Assembly: GCA_050013255.1 (NCBI GenBank)
Contig: JBEKFP010000003.1
Coordinates: 32,001-96,000, forward strand
From: Candidatus Bathyarchaeia archaeon
GTDB taxonomy: Archaea; Thermoproteota; Bathyarchaeia; 40CM-2-53-6
Direction: 5' to 3'
Length of the DNA: 64,000 nucleotides
This document shows, piece by piece, positions 6,531-32,808 of this stretch. The notes under the pieces were generated by a model. It ran no database searches, was not told the DNA's origin, and saw only the letters and a list, made by a program, of their open reading frames with translations. A program made the position numbers and the translations under genes. The stretch's first letter is position 1. Every line of letters starts with the position of its first letter.

Positions 6531-7073
6531 TCATAGCGTCGTCTGCACTGTAAGTTTCTGTATTGCCCTCTTAGCTGCAGTACGTGATGTGGTTGTGAGC
6601 CACCAGTGGTAACTCCCACTTGCGATGTCGTAGATGGGCAACCCGTTGTGGCCCGCTCCGGCAAGAGCCTTAACAATTGAATTGAAAAAGTTGCGCTCCT
6701 CCATGTTCCTCTTCACATCGAGTTCACTTAGGTTCGTTCGTCCGAGTAGTGATTTTGCCTTGTCATCAGACTGTGCTAGTTCCTGGACAATTGCAGCGTC
6801 GTATAGATACTGGTCTTTCTTGTACGGAGTGCTTGGCTTTCCTGTAACCTTTCTGACTACCCAAATCGCTCTTCGGAGCGTCTGGGTAGTTCCGACTAGT
6901 CCTGCCTTTGCAAGACGCTTGAGCGTTTCTATGGCCGTCTTTGTATGTAGGTGGCTTTCATCGGCAACTAACTTAGTTGGCTTCTTACGCTTACGGTCAA
7001 AAGCTTGCAGAGAGAACAATGCCCGAACGACAGCTGAATAAGCTGCAATTGGTAACGTTTTGCTCACGCTCAT
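6531..7073 (-). CDS. Putative wHTH DNA-binding protein
   Basis: TKLVADESHLHTKTAIETLKRLAKAGLV; strong GGAGGTGA SD. Confidence 0.65.
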   Translation of the reverse strand: MSVSKTLPIAAYSAVVRALFSLQAFDRKRKKPTKLVADESHLHTKTAIETLKRLAKAGLVGTTQTLRRAIWVVRKVTGKPSTPYKKDQYLYDAAIVQELAQSDDKAKSLLGRTNLSELDVKRNMEERNFFNSIVKALAGAGHNGLPIYDIASGSYHWWLTTTSRTAAKRAIQKLTVQTTL

Positions 7074-7646
7074 ATCTCACCTCCATGATGGCCTCGGCCG
7101 GATGAAAGTCAAAGCGTTAAATAGACAGACATCATCAAAGGAAAAGATGTCAGTCCGAAGGGGAGCTCTCTTAGGGGCCGCTTAAACCACCTTCGAGAGT
7201 TCTCCTTCCACGACGCTTCTACTATCATTCGCCTAGAGTCTTAACCAATCACCTTGAAGTCCTCGCATTTCATCCTTTGCTCCTCTTAGAAAGTGGAAGC
7301 TCTTGTTAGTAGCCTTGATGCACTTTAATAGTTTTCGACAGAATTGTATAAAATATTATTCTTTATTGTGCCGAGATTCACCGCAGTTTCAAAGTTCTTT
7401 TACGAATTTCGACCAGAATTCGAGCGATGACTCGGCAGCCCATCAACGAAGTTTGATATCTTGATATACGAATTCCTTAGACGGGCTCGGTAGTTCGGTA
7501 GTCGCCACCGACAATTCTGCGAAGAAAAGCCGAAATGAAAGGTGAGTCGATATCTTCAGTTGATTGGTTTTGGTTTGAAAGCACATGCCGTGTTTTTATC
7601 GCAAAGGCGCACTAGATTGTACATTCTTTGTTGAGCGTGAAAGCGA

Positions 7647-8543
7647 TTGGCTCAGGAAGCAGTGACGATACTACAATTCTTGGCGTATCTTGCAATTGGC
7701 TTAATCTCAGTAACAATTCCTACTTACGCTATATCCATTACATATCTCGGACGAGAAACAGAAGGGACGCTAAAAGAGCTTGAACGAAGAAGAGGACGTT
7801 TTTCCGACAAGCTCGACGAGCTGAGAAACCGAATTCAACATGAAACAAGTACCACGGCCATTCAAGCGCTCAAAGAAGAGATATCACTATTCGAGAAAGA
7901 GGAGGAAAGGCTCAAGAACAGACTCTTTTTCCTTTCGGCTAAAGGAGCAGTATTCTTTCCAGTCGTATTTTACATCATGTCGCTGGGTGCGTCCTTGTAC
8001 GGAATTGTGTATGCGACTAATGAGCAGGTCTTTCCCACCTTACTCGGCGCAGCATTTTCTCTATTTGTGGGGTTAGCGCTGTTATGGGGCACTTTGCATG
8101 GGGTGGAGGAAGCTGCTCTTAGACCTGAGGATAAGTTGCTGCCAGCGTTCACGGTAACCTTCATTGACGGAACCACGACCTGCAGTTTTCCCGCCGATAC
8201 CCTTCAAATTTTTCAGATACTGGTAAGGAATAACGGCGAGGTTATGGCCAAGTGCGTAGAGGCTCTCATAGCCTTTCCTCCAGACTTTGAAGTTCCATCC
8301 GTTAGCCAACCTGAGGCCAGACTTAGCACTCAACCAGCTGATAGAGTCATTCACGGTATATCGACAAGGGGGTATGATACCCTTTGGGTAAAACTCAACG
8401 AAATCCATTCAACTATCATGAAATCAATCCCACTTTCGGATGTGAAAATTCCAGCGAGACAAGGAGCGTACAAAATACCAGTTCTCATTTTCTCAGAGCA
8501 GACAAAACCGTCAGAGCACGTATTGACAATCGAAGCAAATTGA
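7647..8543 (+). CDS. Membrane protein with coiled coil and C-terminal Ig-like domain
   Basis: TM, coiled coil, 2 TM, beta domain with VRNNG motif. Confidence 0.7.
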   Translation: MAQEAVTILQFLAYLAIGLISVTIPTYAISITYLGRETEGTLKELERRRGRFSDKLDELRNRIQHETSTTAIQALKEEISLFEKEEERLKNRLFFLSAKGAVFFPVVFYIMSLGASLYGIVYATNEQVFPTLLGAAFSLFVGLALLWGTLHGVEEAALRPEDKLLPAFTVTFIDGTTTCSFPADTLQIFQILVRNNGEVMAKCVEALIAFPPDFEVPSVSQPEARLSTQPADRVIHGISTRGYDTLWVKLNEIHSTIMKSIPLSDVKIPARQGAYKIPVLIFSEQTKPSEHVLTIEAN

Positions 8544-8627
8544 GATGGAAGTCAATGGGTGGGATTTTCAGAAAATGAATGGGCCTATGATGAGTCTCGT
8601 TACTAGATTCCCCTAAGACGCCTGACG

Positions 8628-8688
8628 TGCTACAGGTGTAGCAAATCTTAATACGCAACTCTTAACTATATTCTGCTACAGGTGTAGC
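8628..8688. promoter_or_regulatory. Two copies of palindrome TGCTACAGGTGTAGC flanking a TATA-like element
   Basis: Exact 15-bp copies at 8628-8642 and 8674-8688; 31-bp AT-rich spacer containing CTTAATA. Confidence 0.75.
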
Positions 8689-8690
8689 GA

Positions 8691-8933
8691 TTGGGGTTAG
8701 CTAACGTGGTCTATGTAGTTGACTATGATATTCCTACATCTAATCCAACTAGGCGGGTTGACTTCTACCGTAAGGTTCACAGACTTCTAGGAGAACATTA
8801 TGGCAAAGAAGTGAAATTCTCCACTCAATCATGTTACTTTACAGAGGACGAGGCATTAGCCAAAAAATTCTTAGAGTTAGCAGGTCACTATAGTAAGAGA
8901 TGTAACCTCTACAAGGCGGTGAAGATGCAATGA
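8691..8933 (+). CDS. Solo Cas2/VapD-like ferredoxin-fold protein
   Basis: YVVDYDIP, RR..F.RK, STQSCY match Cas2 YDI / RR / QxSVF motifs; 80 aa. Confidence 0.65.
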   Translation: MGLANVVYVVDYDIPTSNPTRRVDFYRKVHRLLGEHYGKEVKFSTQSCYFTEDEALAKKFLELAGHYSKRCNLYKAVKMQ

Positions 8934-9595
8934 AGAATATTGGAATTCTCTTAATCATCGTATCTCTCGCGAGTCTTGGAGGCTTGGAGTATCCTACGGT
9001 TCCTATCAATCGAACGTCCACTTCGACCCAGTATCGGTTAACAAGCCTACTGGTTCAGAGCACTGAGACAGTTGATGTAATGCAGGGTTCCGTCACGTTG
9101 AAGCTTTGCTTCCTCGCCGTGACGAACTACTTCACGGCTAATGCAGGCGACATTTTCATTATTACTTCGCCTCCACCTGGTGTGACCGTCGGAGTTCTCG
9201 ACCTGGGTGTCGGAGAAGTAATTCATGAGGCATTCCTTATGGCAAAGACGTACGACGATTATCAACTCGAATGTGGTGTAGCTTATGGACTAAGAGGGGC
9301 CGTAGTGAACAATACGTGGACGGCTACATACAGTAGCGTTTACTACCTTGTTTTCTTTCAGCCCCCTGATTCGCCGTCGATGCCTAACATCGAGTTTATT
9401 CTATCAAAAATAACGGTATCTGCGAATTCGTTGGCGACCACTCTGCCTTACAGCACTACTGTGACTAATCCCACAAAAATTCCGTATGCGACCTCAGGAA
9501 TAAGCGGCATAATGAGCTTGCTCTTGGTTGCCGCATTGTTCCTAGCAGGAGTTGGCTTGTTATTTAGAGCAAGAAAGATATCTACAAAGTTGTGA
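8930..9595 (+). CDS. Secreted/membrane protein (cargo)
   Basis: N-terminal hydrophobic segment and C-terminal TM with basic tail. Confidence 0.7.
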   Translation: MKNIGILLIIVSLASLGGLEYPTVPINRTSTSTQYRLTSLLVQSTETVDVMQGSVTLKLCFLAVTNYFTANAGDIFIITSPPPGVTVGVLDLGVGEVIHEAFLMAKTYDDYQLECGVAYGLRGAVVNNTWTATYSSVYYLVFFQPPDSPSMPNIEFILSKITVSANSLATTLPYSTTVTNPTKIPYATSGISGIMSLLLVAALFLAGVGLLFRARKISTKL

Positions 9596-9602
9596 AGATG
9601 CA

Positions 9603-9722
9603 ATGACAGATGGCAAAAACGTCCCGCAGGGGCGTCCGAAGGACGTTTCAGTTAAGGGGGTTCAACTTACCCCTAGACCTCATTACATAGTCCACACTAT
9701 CTCCAAGATGGTTAGGCTGTGA
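9603..9722 (+). CDS. 39-aa ORF bounded by repeats 2 and 3
   Basis: MTDGKNVPQGRPKDVSVKGVQLTPRPHYIVHTISKMVRL; ATG in repeat 2, TGA in repeat 3. Confidence 0.35.
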   Translation: MTDGKNVPQGRPKDVSVKGVQLTPRPHYIVHTISKMVRL

Positions 9723-9729
9723 AGGTGCA

Positions 9730-9825
9730 ATGACCGAAAATAATTCTGGAAAATCGCCGGTTCAAATCCGGTCCGGCCCACCACTAAACTACTCGGGCGG
9801 AATTTCTGAGAAAATCTGTGCATAG
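9730..9825 (+). pseudogene. Putative integrase N-terminal fragment int(N) split by att
   Basis: ATG in repeat 3; MTENNSGKSPVQIRSGPP reads through the tRNA 3' half, as in SSV-type split integrases. Confidence 0.45.
9750..9783 (+). other. att site: 3' half of a tRNA (T-arm, acceptor 3' strand, ACCA)
   Basis: GCCGG-TTCAAAT-CCGGT CCGGCCC A CCA with no 5' half upstream. Confidence 0.85.
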
Positions 9826-11525
9826 TCAACTTGTTTCTTTCGTGGTCCCCACTTGTAGTAGGTGTAGATCGCTGCTCCGATCAGGACGAATAGAAGATTG
9901 AATCCTAAGGCTAGCCAGTTGTAATAACCTGGAGCTAGCATATTGTCGTCAAAGATCGAGGTAAGGACCTCCCACCCGATGACCAAATTAGCCACGAGAC
10001 CCGCGAGGCCAATTGCTGCAACCCCAAGTTTCCCGCCTGGTTTGAAATATGCACTATCATAGAAGCGCCGTTGTCTGAACGGGAAGAGTAGGACTGCAAA
10101 CGAAAAGAGGCTGAGAAAAATCACAGTTAGAAGGTCTACGTAGGTGACGCCATACGAAAAGAAGGCGTCCATGATAGAACCTATGAGCCCGCCTGGGTTC
10201 CAACTGCCGCCAAGGGCAGCGACGCAAACTCCTCCACAACCTAACCCTGCTAATCCGCCAAGAATCGCGACGAGGACGACTGCGACAAAGGGAACGTGGA
10301 ATCTGTTAAGCTTGGCGAAAGTCTCAGGGAGGACTCTGTCGAATGACATGGCGAAAATCAGTCTTGAACCGGCCAACATCAATGCTGGAATTTCGTTAGC
10401 CGCCAACAGTAAGGGAAATAGGAACAAGATGACATTGAACGAGCCTAGTCCCAAGCCTTGAGCACTCATCATGGCCAATATTTGAACAAACATCCGGATT
10501 GGAGGAAGATGCGCCTGTGTGAGGCTCGTCGAAAATGTGAGGAAAGAGTAGGCTCCAAGGAAGCTCCACCTATCACCGTTGGGCAATATCGTTTGCCCTA
10601 CCGATGCAGCGGCGTCAGCTGAGATCCACGCCACGCCTACGAGAACCACGATAGCGACGAGCGCGCCGATTATTAGAACCTTAGGGAGATTCCTCTTAGG
10701 ATCCTTCACTTCTCCTAGAACAAATGTGGTTGAGGCGACTGCACCCCAGACAAGGAAAAAGCCAAAGTAAGACCAGACTGCCCAAATGAAACTGGCTGAA
10801 ACCGCTGTCCAATAGTCTCCGACGTTTGCTGAGTCAAGCCCCTGAGCGAGAGCAGCTTTTACGTATGTGTCTGCGGTCACTCCGGGTACTCCTTGTGTCT
10901 GCGCCCACATTGAAATTCCTCGCTCTAGCACGGCAGGGTTCATTATTGTGATGGCGAACAAACATAGAACGTAAGCAGTAATTATGACAGAAACCCAGAA
11001 GAGTACTTGCATCAAATACCCCGATACTCTCGTGCCAAACGCCGAGATCACTGCAAAAACGACTATGAGTATTAATCCGCCGACGGTTGGGTCGACGTCG
11101 TTAAGAATCGGACTTGCCGGGAAATAGAAATGCTGAGCGAGGCTCACGGCAATTGCGCCTAAATAGAAAGAAATCGTTAGGAATACAAGCCAACCCGCGA
11201 TGAAGCCCATGAATGGGTTGATAATCCTTGAAATCGCAAGATATCCTCCGCCAGATCGAGGCATTGCGCTACCTAAGATCGAATACCCAACCACCATTGA
11301 TAAGGCCAGAATTCCCACTATGATGAGGGCCATCACGGAAGGTGGAATTCCAGCGAACCATAAGTTCTCAGGCAAGGGGATGTTGCCCGTAGCAGAGAAG
11401 CCTCTCGCGAACGGCCAGAAGGCCCAACCCGTAACTGCGAGAATAATTACGACTGCAGTTAACGGACCAATTTCTCTAACTAGTCCCGTAGTTTCTCTTA
11501 CAAACGACTTCTTTCCATCAAGCAA
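9789..11525 (-). CDS. APC family amino acid permease
   Basis: FVRETTGLVREI start, AMPRSGGGY, GEVKDPKR, RLIFAMSFDRVLP, EIPPE end; ~12 TM. Confidence 0.9.
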   Translation of the reverse strand: MLDGKKSFVRETTGLVREIGPLTAVVIILAVTGWAFWPFARGFSATGNIPLPENLWFAGIPPSVMALIIVGILALSMVVGYSILGSAMPRSGGGYLAISRIINPFMGFIAGWLVFLTISFYLGAIAVSLAQHFYFPASPILNDVDPTVGGLILIVVFAVISAFGTRVSGYLMQVLFWVSVIITAYVLCLFAITIMNPAVLERGISMWAQTQGVPGVTADTYVKAALAQGLDSANVGDYWTAVSASFIWAVWSYFGFFLVWGAVASTTFVLGEVKDPKRNLPKVLIIGALVAIVVLVGVAWISADAAASVGQTILPNGDRWSFLGAYSFLTFSTSLTQAHLPPIRMFVQILAMMSAQGLGLGSFNVILFLFPLLLAANEIPALMLAGSRLIFAMSFDRVLPETFAKLNRFHVPFVAVVLVAILGGLAGLGCGGVCVAALGGSWNPGGLIGSIMDAFFSYGVTYVDLLTVIFLSLFSFAVLLFPFRQRRFYDSAYFKPGGKLGVAAIGLAGLVANLVIGWEVLTSIFDDNMLAPGYYNWLALGFNLLFVLIGAAIYTYYKWGPRKKQVDYAQIFSEIPPE

Positions 11526-15592: not shown

Positions 15593-15695
15593 TCCGGTCC
15601 GGCTCACCACTGAACTAGTCGGGCGGAATTTCCGACGAGCTCCGTGTGTAGCTATTTTGTCTTCCCGAAGGACCTCATCTAGAATATACGTAGAT
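15593..15695. pseudogene. Decayed tRNA 3' end plus C-terminal remnant of APC permease
   Basis: TCCGGTCCGGCTCACCACT; minus strand IYVYSR*GPSGRQNSYTRSSSEIPPD* vs IYTYYKWGPRKKQVDYAQIFSEIPPE*. Confidence 0.8.
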
Positions 15696-31417: not shown

Positions 31418-32808
31418 GCCCCAGTCCGGTATTTGGGATGATACTGTTTGATTGTTGCTGGGTCTACGCGTTTAAGCTCATTTTCAGGAAGCGCGGCTAG
31501 AAGGTTCCATCCTATCTCTAGCGTTTTCTCAATGTCGCGGTTCTCGTATTCACCTTGCCCAATAAAGCGCCGCTCGAAATCGTCAGCAAACTTCAGGTAT
31601 ATCTTATCCCTAGCTGAGAGTGCTTCTTCTCCCACTACGGCCACTAGGTCTCTGAAGGCTCTGCCCTCGGCGTATGCGTAGTAGAGCTGGTCGGAAACTT
31701 CCCTGTGGTCCTGCCGTGTCCTTTCCTTACCAATGCCTTCGCGCATAAGCCGGGAGAGGGACGGAGATACGTCGATTGGTGGGTAGATACCTTTTCTGTG
31801 TAAGCCCCTGTCCACGATCAATTGGCCTTCGGTGATATAGCCCGTGAGGTTGGGGATGGGATGCGTGATGTCGTCGTGGGGCATTGTCAGAATGGGCATT
31901 TGAGTTATTGATCCCTTCGCACCCCGGATTCTTCCGGCGCGTTCGTATATCGTGGATAGGTCAGTGTAAAGGTAGCCTGGGTAACCTCTTCGTCCGGGGA
32001 CTTCTTCCCTGGCCGCCGAAATTTCCCGTAAGGCTTCAGCGTAATTAGTCATGTCAGTGATGATGACGAGTACATGCATGTCTAGTTTGAATGCGAAGAA
32101 CTCTGCCGCGGTTAAGGCCATGCGTGGGGTGAGAATTCTTTCTATCGCTGGGTCGTCGGCTAGGTTGACGAACATTGTAACGTGTTCGAAGGCGCCTTGC
32201 TTTTCGAAGTCTTCCCTGAAGAATCTTGCTTCATCTGCAGTGATCCCGATTGCCGCGAATACGGTTGAGAACGGTTCGCCTGTCCCCCGAACGCTTGCTT
32301 GCCGTGCGACCTGAGCAGCAACGCGATTGTGGGGGAGCCCCGCGCCAGAGAACAATGGGAGTTTCTGTCCCCTAACGAGAGTATTCATTCCATCTATAGC
32401 CGAAATACCGGTCTGAATGAACTCCCGGGGGTAGGTCCTTGCGTAAGGGTTAATGGGCGAACCGTGGACGTCCCAGTAATCCTCTGGAATAATCCGAGGG
32501 CCGCCATCTATCGGGTTACCGCTTCCGTCAAGAATTCTGCCTAACAGGTCGCTTGATACGGGCAGCTTGACGGTTTCACCTAGGAATCGGACGCTTGTGG
32601 AAGGGATGTCGAGGCCAGATGTTCCCTCGAAGACTTGCACAACTGCTAGGTCACGGCGAACTTCGAGAACTTGGCCGCGTCTTTCTTCGCCTGTGGGTGT
32701 GCGAATTCTAACTAGTTCGCCGTACCCAACGCCCTTGACGTTTTTGACGAAGAGAAGTGGGCCTGAAATTTCATTAACCGTTGAATATTCGCGAACGATA
32801 ACGGACAT
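31414..32808 (-). CDS. atpB: A/V-type ATP synthase subunit B
   Basis: [26 protein letters not shown]. Confidence 0.98.

Follow-up and report, generated by a model that had tools for sequence, protein, structure and literature searches.

The 64,000-nucleotide stretch of DNA analysed here, referred to as the window, comprises positions 32,001 to 96,000 of one contig (C3) of a three-contig, 2.46-Mb archaeal assembly. It includes part of an integrative element in which a gene for a small protein with a putative Cas2/VapD fold (Cas2-like below) is separated from the start of a tyrosine integrase gene, int, by two open reading frames (ORFs), and a short sequence is repeated before each of the two ORFs and before the integrase. 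A first-pass annotation had taken this region for an integron-like train of gene cassettes, each consisting of one ORF and one repeat. The question raised by the locus is therefore whether the repeated sequence, named J, is a recombination site that captures genes or a product of some other process. Comparison with about 40 related loci, from the same genus and from peat and wetland metagenomes and designated by L numbers, indicated that J almost certainly combines the end of the Cas2-like gene (Y-K-A-V-K-M-Q-stop) with the start of the integrase. The module so joined, a Cas2-fold gene followed by a tyrosine integrase of the kind found in Sulfolobus spindle-shaped viruses (SSV), is carried by a family of integrative elements within one Nitrososphaeraceae genus.

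The junction between the Cas2-like gene and the integrase

A 15-mer, GTGAAGRTGCAATGA, is located on the forward strand of the window at 8919-8933, 9592-9606 and 9719-9733, in agreement with the three copies listed in the first-pass annotation, and no fourth match was found in the window when up to two mismatches were allowed. None of 100 dinucleotide shuffles included three or more matches, and the exact sequence is not found elsewhere in the genome. When one mismatch was tolerated the genome-wide search returned the three window copies and a single additional site, C2:250709 on the reverse strand, which precedes the N-terminal part of the integrase gene, int(N), of a second related element. 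A 23-nt weight matrix derived from 27 related junctions gave scores of 37.6, 30.3 and 21.4 to the three copies, while the handful of other sites in the genome scored 21.0 or less. Because of this rarity in both searches, J cannot be considered a ribosome-binding motif common to the whole genome, an objection that had been anticipated when the cassettes were proposed. Copies 1 and 2 are longer than the 15-mer, with 23 of 26 nt identical between 8908-8933 and 9581-9606, and copy 3 has about 21 nt in common with copy 1, so that J is a motif of about 21-26 bp. The features of the region, in window coordinates, are as follows.

8691-8933, forward strand: Cas2-like gene, 80 amino acids, perhaps starting at the GTG at 8706; its final VKMQ and stop are copy 1
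8908-8933, forward strand: J1, the Cas2-like tail, with an ATGA overlap with the start of ORF221
8930-9595, forward strand: ORF221, 221 amino acids, with an N-terminal signal peptide and a C-terminal transmembrane (TM) anchor, inside the Cas2-like/int junction
9581-9606, forward strand: J2, which ends ORF221 (TGA at 9593-9595) and heads the probable fossil int(N)'; its Cas2 frame reads DIYKVVKMQ-stop
9603-9722, forward strand: ORF39, the probable fossil int(N)' (beginning MTDGKNVPQGRPKDVSVKG), which crosses the decayed 3' portion of a class II tRNA (a former attachment site, att', at about 9620-9680) and into the conserved block
9656-9740, forward strand: conserved block, starting at the fossil T-arm and extending to J3 and the int start
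9713-9733, forward strand: J3, the junction copy bearing the start codon of the live integrase
9730-9783, forward strand: int(N), comprising codons 1-18 of the split integrase and running across the attachment site attR
9754-9783, forward strand: attR, a 30-bp repeat of the tRNA-Val(UAC) 3' end

TGA is present twice in the 15-mer, at positions 2-4 and 13-15, and the two are in different frames; the remaining frame of J is that of the downstream ATG. An ORF entering in either of the first two frames must therefore end inside J. The first TGA of copy 2 (positions 2-4) terminates ORF221, and the equivalent TGA of copy 3 terminates the frame of ORF39, as described before, but the exactness with which J bounds these ORFs is partly automatic; a frame that is open up to J either stops there or is fused to the next ORF. 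The sequence GGTGA, located 7 nt ahead of the ATG in J1, is presumably a Shine-Dalgarno sequence. Copy 1 proved to be the 3' end of the Cas2-like gene (VKMQ-stop, ORF 8691-8933), also as first annotated.

In most relatives J is present as a single copy and the Cas2-like gene runs straight into int, its stop codon overlapping the int ATG as ATGA. At L013 and 12 metagenome loci, each with one J, the Cas2-like stop overlaps an ORF that within about 120 nt enters a fragment of a tRNA T-arm and acceptor stem, and this ORF is an int(N). It is because these single-J relatives show the Cas2-like stop overlapping int(N) that J can be assigned to the two genes. At other loci the ORF behind J opens with the same MT(E/D)-type start. 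Among the 27 junctions J changes mainly at third codon positions, or conservatively within the tail V-K-(M/V/I/T)-(Q/K/E), a pattern that points to the drift of a coding sequence. The motif is also found before int behind an upstream gene other than the Cas2-like one, where it is read in a different frame (L032, L033 and L052), and likewise before int(N) in the second element, on C2, which has no Cas2-like gene upstream; at a few loci (L066 and L057) it lies ahead of genes other than int.

The possibility that the copies are long fossils of the 3' end of the Cas2-like gene was considered and rejected, as the repeat comprises only about 21-26 nt and in the 80 nt upstream of the 15-mers similarity did not exceed that of shuffles for the pairs J2/J1, J3/J1 and J3/J2 or for the pairs of L083 and L100. 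A scan of viral contigs with a 21-mer of the int start gave no match, and the same scan with an 18-mer of J gave five, all in unrelated phage contigs without an upstream Cas2-like gene, which we take as chance.

Homologues of the Cas2-like gene were found in 12 of 58 other genomes of the family, nearly all of the same genus, and at 29 loci in peat and wetland metagenomes with a single-protein query. The AlphaFold2 model of the protein (mean predicted local distance difference test score 90.9) has the order beta-alpha-beta-alpha-beta, compared with beta-alpha-beta-beta-alpha-beta in the ferredoxin-like fold of Cas2. The match to Pfam PF09827 (E=0.058, 14.0 bits) is below the cutoff of 23.8, a profile search of the PDB returned Cas2 chains at E=0.64 and 1.2, and Foldseek placed several Cas2 structures and VapD among the top matches (E=0.018-0.07, template modelling scores 0.37-0.56) beside other ferredoxin-like folds. 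Like Cas2 and VapD, the protein has about 80 amino acids, with an N-terminal beta-strand, VVDYDIP, that resembles Cas2 beta1 with its Asp, and its fold may be ferredoxin-like. Unlike them, it matches below the family thresholds, its element has no cas1, CRISPR array or cognate antitoxin, and its gene is fixed upstream of a tyrosine integrase. Support for the label Cas2-like is thus weak.

Two variants of the junction were noted among the relatives. At L074, L090, L078, L094 and L053 the ORF behind J enters a tRNA on the opposite strand, and the integrases at these loci are therefore antisense to their tRNA target. At L015:129-740, L017, L022 and L097 the ORF that follows the Cas2-like gene and J starts with a ribbon-helix-helix (RHH) domain similar to CcdA (Pfam CcdA, E=6.5e-7) and runs into the gene for archaeal RNase P RNA, which lies on the other strand (Rfam, 169-181 bits). 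This ORF is probably an int(N) with an RHH N-terminus, with the RNase P RNA gene as the integration target.

Occupants of the junction slot

In most relatives the Cas2-like/int slot is empty, and an insert is present in only about 5 of the approximately 40 loci. Gene content at homologous loci is accordingly not fixed, as had been expected of a gene-capture site: where the slot is occupied it holds a member of the ORF221 family (L100 and L099), an ORF of 129 amino acids (L083 and L102) or one of 68 amino acids (L027), each followed by a second J. These three families (ORF221, ORF129 and ORF68) are mutually unrelated. The 129-amino-acid ORF, which includes TM and zinc-ribbon features, is located at L083 and L102-L105 between two J copies with 19 of 21 positions identical; the L083 pair is identical at 15 of 15 positions of the 15-mer, both copies having a locus-specific A at position 6, and a 53% homologue at L101 also lies behind a J. 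In L027 a 68-amino-acid TM protein occupies the slot, flanked by J copies that are alike at 10 of 15 positions, and is followed by two copies of the int start 51 nt apart, both with ATGCAATGACAGAA. The presence of two unrelated ORFs, of 129 and 68 amino acids, in the same slot between J copies indicates that the junction is a real and recurrent insertion hot spot. What can be retained of the proposed gene-capture site is this recurrent slot, but not an integron-type mechanism: J shows no hairpin and no likeness to att, it drifts as coding sequence does, and sister copies can be dissimilar.

The first unit of the window, ORF221, has a homologue of 164 amino acids at L100, where the order is Cas2-like gene, J1, ORF164, J2, int(N) and tRNA fragment, and another member of the family, ORF166, at L099, where it is followed by J and a different int(N). 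ORF164 ends in KISKAVKVQ-stop, which is J2 in the Cas2 frame. This J2, GGCGGTTAAAGTTCAATGA, differs from the J1 of the same locus at 5 of 15 positions (10 of 15 alike, as in L027) and is the variant of the Cas2-like tail found in L072 and L077; since it is typical of the tails of other elements, the int side of L100 came from another lineage. Only the termini are conserved in the ORF221 family (63% and 52% identity), and a family-wide search with ORF221 gave one weak match only. At L098 (Ga0116115_1035714) a 95% variant of ORF221 turns to unrelated sequence at its 3' end, inside the TM anchor, after ..ALFLAGVG, and the conserved anchor of the family is possibly a further recombination patch. 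No function could be assigned to ORF221, ORF39 or ORF68 with Pfam or PHROGs; in the element these scans covered 14 ORFs, namely those of at least 180 amino acids plus the Cas2-like gene and ORF39. The comparisons show that ORF221 is a real, membrane-anchored accessory gene of a fast-evolving family whose members fill this slot in three or more elements that differ in their integrases.

The second unit, ORF39, is very probably not cargo but the fossil of the first 26 codons, together with the decayed att, of an older integrase that had a class II tRNA as its target. Its frame from copy 2, MTDGKNVPQGRPKDVSVKGVQLTPRP, resembles the live int(N)-attR ends of elements that integrate into class II tRNA genes, such as L032 (MTEKESVPQGRPKDASVQGFESPPP), and the alignment at the DNA level spans the variable arm (CGTCCGAAGGACG) and extends into the decayed T-arm. 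The local alignment scores were 69 with L032 and 67 with L033, whereas shuffles gave a mean of 13.2 (standard deviation 2.3-2.4) and maxima of 23 and 26. The claim that this 127-bp unit is a cassette is therefore not supported. A dead int start followed by a decayed class II att directly behind copy 2 implies that an older int/att module was replaced by the tRNA-Val module, and the latter would have arrived with its own upstream block and J3.

Origin of the extra junction copies

Evidence that segments are exchanged at J was obtained from pairs of loci with at least 80% identity in the final 100 nt of the Cas2-like gene. Of 15 such pairs listed, 12 fall to 47-58% identity right after the ATGA of J; the exceptions are two pairs at 68%, one of which (L072-L075) has one type of integrase, and the pair formed by the window and L100 (85%), which share the slot gene. 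Between L095 and the window 43 of the 45 nt before the ATGA are alike, and the sequences are divergent both upstream and downstream of them. Contigs assembled by Logan from four peat sequencing runs, a data set that drops rare variants, include the arrangement of the window unchanged as well as an L095-type variant. The latter has the same Cas2-like 3' end, J and tRNA-Val att, but between J and att lie 38 nt of a different int(N). Several other replaced segments were found along the element in these contigs and, together with the J-adjacent variant, they define J as one of several boundaries at which modules are exchanged. Neither a J-to-J joint nor a circle was detected in the four runs, which is no evidence either way given that Logan contigs drop rare variants. 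A possible empty-site joint, from 2354 to 15764 of L005, was seen in one run, with a side of 20 that is too short to rely on.

In our best reading the extra J copies are probably scars left when related elements recombined as mosaics, at or close to a junction under selection, and we favour, with similarly modest confidence, the view that no dedicated cassette recombination is involved. The copies would be generated by short-homology or illegitimate recombination among related elements that co-circulate or reside in the same cell; one event would place the slot gene between the Cas2-like gene and int, and a separate one would swap the integrase module. Each J copy would supply stops in two frames, a probable Shine-Dalgarno sequence and the ATG of the next ORF. 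The extra copies would persist because translation of the operon, and of int in particular, is retained only in recombinants that have J before every gene.

Several observations weigh against this origin by mosaic recombination. Three unrelated ORF families are found in exactly one slot, each abutting a junction duplicate of about 20-26 bp without any spacer, and such neatness exceeds what random illegitimate recombination predicts. Both the window (15/15) and L083 (15/15, and 19/21 overall) have near-identical flanking copies, a finding that fits in-situ duplication or site-directed insertion. As there is no similarity upstream of J past about 26 nt, the copies are not long gene remnants of variable length. 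The event that first created a J-ORF-J arrangement is not explained by homologous exchange alone, and as the assembly holds no 16S rRNA, GGTGA has no anti-Shine-Dalgarno sequence for comparison.

Two known systems can be compared with this slot. In the mobile regulatory cassettes of T4-type phages known as promoter early stem-loops (PeSL), and in the morons of lambdoid phages, short repeated expression signals flank optional ORFs at fixed slots; exchange is thought to occur by recombination on the short repeats, and related genomes are polymorphic for the presence of the ORFs. The optional ORFs flanked by J, and the breaks in homology between elements that were detected at J, are in line with this pattern, and by analogy the slot behaves like a site of moron- or PeSL-type insertion of optional genes. 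It differs in that the repeated signal is a coding tail with a stop/start overlap rather than a promoter with a stem-loop, and in that the host is an archaeal integrative element. Integrons are also reported in Archaea (PMC9668308; bioRxiv 10.1101/2022.02.06.479319). The slot resembles them in that a tyrosine recombinase gene lies beside varying promoterless ORFs in the same orientation, each followed by a repeat, and the variable content among related arrays that is a feature of integrons was observed. The attC site of integrons, 57-141 bp long, forms a hairpin, while J has only about 20-26 bp and no hairpin; in a scan of 8850-9800 no attC-like hairpin inverted repeats were found, and no inverted-repeat pair lies at or across any J copy, the sole pair near J (I3, 9617-9648) being a stem of the fossil tRNA. 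Nor is the layout that of an IntI-type gene beside an attI and, as is usual in integrons, divergent from the array: int is downstream of the slot, co-directional with it and inside the same operon, has its own tRNA att within the ORF, and encodes an SSV-type split enzyme. In addition, one of the supposed cassettes is a dead integrase start, and each element has one or two inserts at most. As two defining features of integrons were looked for and are lacking, the element is not an integron.

In a rival reading the locus is a true cassette platform. J, as a unit of about 20-26 bp with stop, spacer and start, could be the crossover site through which ORF circles carrying one J re-enter before int, catalysed by host homologous recombination on short homology, as in PeSL, or by a factor of the element such as the integrase or the Cas2-like protein. 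The three J-flanked families in one slot, the consistent length of the duplicates, the tight fit of the ORF boundaries to J's own stop and start, the near-identical flanking copies of the window and L083, and the occurrence of J before genes other than int (L066 and L057) would all be expected of it. We nevertheless consider it unlikely, since unit 2 is a fossil int(N)/att instead of cargo, J lacks dyad symmetry and does not resemble the 30-bp att core, its drift is of the coding type, the flanking copies of L100 and of L027 are only 10/15 alike, the ORF221 family diverges within one slot without shuffling, and inserts are found in just about 5 of the 40 or so loci. The more specific proposal that J is a minimal recombination site capturing promoterless ORFs between a Cas2-fold gene and a tyrosine integrase, in a non-integron platform of ammonia-oxidising archaea with the Cas2-like protein as a possible integrase accessory, seems to us distinctly unlikely. 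Were J an active recombination site, a new and very compact mechanism of gene capture would have been found; as the evidence stands, the locus is a well-documented case of mosaic evolution at a gene boundary.

The near-identity of two of the flanking pairs could also be accounted for by a target-site duplication, in which a staggered-cut enzyme (transposase-, casposase- or Cas1-like) inserts an ORF and duplicates about 20-26 bp, as happens to CRISPR repeats. The duplicates are short and of similar length, and a Cas2-fold gene adjoins them; but no Cas1, casposase or transposase was identified by Pfam or PHROGs among the 14 scanned ORFs of the element (smaller ORFs were outside the scan), terminal inverted repeats were not found at the ends of the inserts, the J1/J2 pairs of L100 and L027 are dissimilar, and unit 2 is already accounted for as a fossil int(N)/att, so that its probability is very slim. 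Local tandem duplication of the int start, followed by divergence and by ORFs growing or being overprinted in place, is suggested by the adjacent int-start copies of L027, which lie 51 nt apart with ATGCAATGACAGAA in common, and by the int(N)-like MTD with which ORF39 opens behind J2 in the window. It is highly improbable, because the att' of ORF39 belongs to a tRNA class different from that of the live att, so that ORF39 is no duplicate of the present int(N), and because a 221-codon frame with a signal peptide, a TM anchor and homologues elsewhere must be a real gene, either imported or old. Convergence of unrelated genes, or chance, on the same optimal ribosome-binding sequence has in its favour only the GGTGA-type motif at Shine-Dalgarno distance in J1; it is effectively refuted by identities of 15/15 and 14/15 that extend to 21-26 nt, by the ceiling of 21.0 reached on the weight matrix by other genome sites, and by the absence of three matches in any of the 100 shuffles.

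The integrated element and its surroundings

The element that carries the junction is 13.4 kb long and is integrated in a tRNA-Val(UAC) gene. The attR at 9754-9783, a 30-bp direct repeat of the 3' end of this tRNA, has its partner attL at C3:28335-28364, which is 13,419 bp upstream of attR and 3.6 kb upstream of the window. The tRNA gene (C3:28267-28364, L005:2267-2364) includes a 27-nt insertion in the D-arm region, scores 61 bits with Rfam and could not be named by ARAGORN. Neither ARAGORN nor Rfam at the gathering threshold detected a tRNA near the J copies, and the att partner came from a search of the whole genome. The ATG at 9730, the 24 nt that it begins, the 30-bp att and the sequence from C3:28365 onward form a single open frame that continues into a Phage_integrase domain; int(C), at L005:2365-3360, encodes a tyrosine-recombinase domain of 327 amino acids (Pfam Phage_integrase, E=6e-20). 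The arrangement is of the SSV type, with att inside int and the gene split by integration. In the excised circle the order would be Cas2-like gene, ORF221, ORF39 and int, on one strand throughout. The G+C content of the element is below that of its flank, and its products include a winged helix-turn-helix protein, a thioredoxin-like protein and several proteins with signal peptides and TM anchors; no viral hallmark genes were found in the Pfam and PHROGs scans.

The location of att within the int ORF, with partition of the gene, and the integration into a tRNA gene with a 30-bp repeat place the element with the SSV1-type (type I) elements, with which it also shares the int(N)/int(C) split, the tRNA 3' target, the flanking direct repeats, the small size, the cryptic character and the lack of viral hallmark genes. 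NitEve-E3 of Ca. Nitrososphaera evergladensis is another cryptic integrated thaumarchaeal element with an SSV-type split integrase (PMC6563490; reviewed in PMC8371274 and PMC7253208). The present element differs from the SSV1 type in the Cas2-fold gene that overlaps int translationally, in the repeated junction copies, and in having, immediately upstream of the live int, a fossil int(N)/att with a different specificity. The fixed Cas2-fold/integrase overlap, the junction duplications and the fossil that records an integrase swap appear to be undescribed; the words Cas2 and VapD are absent from the survey of the thaumarchaeal mobilome (PMC6563490), which does not mention the pairing. Three things are of note for the evolution of small archaeal integrative elements: SSV-type integrases of many target specificities share a fixed translational overlap with a Cas2-fold gene; the junction of the two is a recurrent slot for small membrane-protein genes, each with a junction duplicate; and when an integrase/att module is swapped, the previous N-terminal exon and att can be left as a scar that records the change of integration target.

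The conserved block at 9656-9740 has a counterpart with 85% identity over 85 nt ahead of int(N) in the second element, on C2, although the integrases of the two elements are only 48% identical, and it is matched in G046 too (84%). It is possibly functional, as a suspected int promoter and leader, or was recently converted between the two elements. The C2 element (G000:C2:250600-260080; L028, L035 and L008) is integrated in a tRNA-Arg gene, at C2:260000-260077, and has an int(C) with the same 48% identity; its int(N) is preceded by the 85-nt block and the one-mismatch J, it lacks a Cas2-like gene, and upstream of the block it carries a degenerate J2-like remnant, GTTGTGAAAATGC. A third integrase homologue, outside the window at G000:C3:131115-132157 (L009 and L011), shows 38% identity and has an open frame of 370 amino acids adjoining a short duplicated C-terminal fragment.

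In one of the peat runs the region at 7547-8577 of the window (L005 13547-14577) has a far commoner relative (depth 278 versus 38) in which 14 nt replace ORF298 (7647-8543). Depth also peaks at 6874-7390, which suggests a segment common to several elements. Downstream of the element, 15593-15660 is 78% identical over 68 nt to 9767-9834 and consists of a second decayed tRNA 3' end plus the last codons of a convergent permease gene, 5826 bp downstream of the first; it may represent an older integration or a duplication at this hot spot. The palindrome CTACAGGTGTAGC is present twice at 8628-8687, a short way ahead of the Cas2-like gene; its copies, 47 bp apart, flank an A+T-rich stretch and are likely to be operators around the promoter of the operon that extends from the Cas2-like gene to int.

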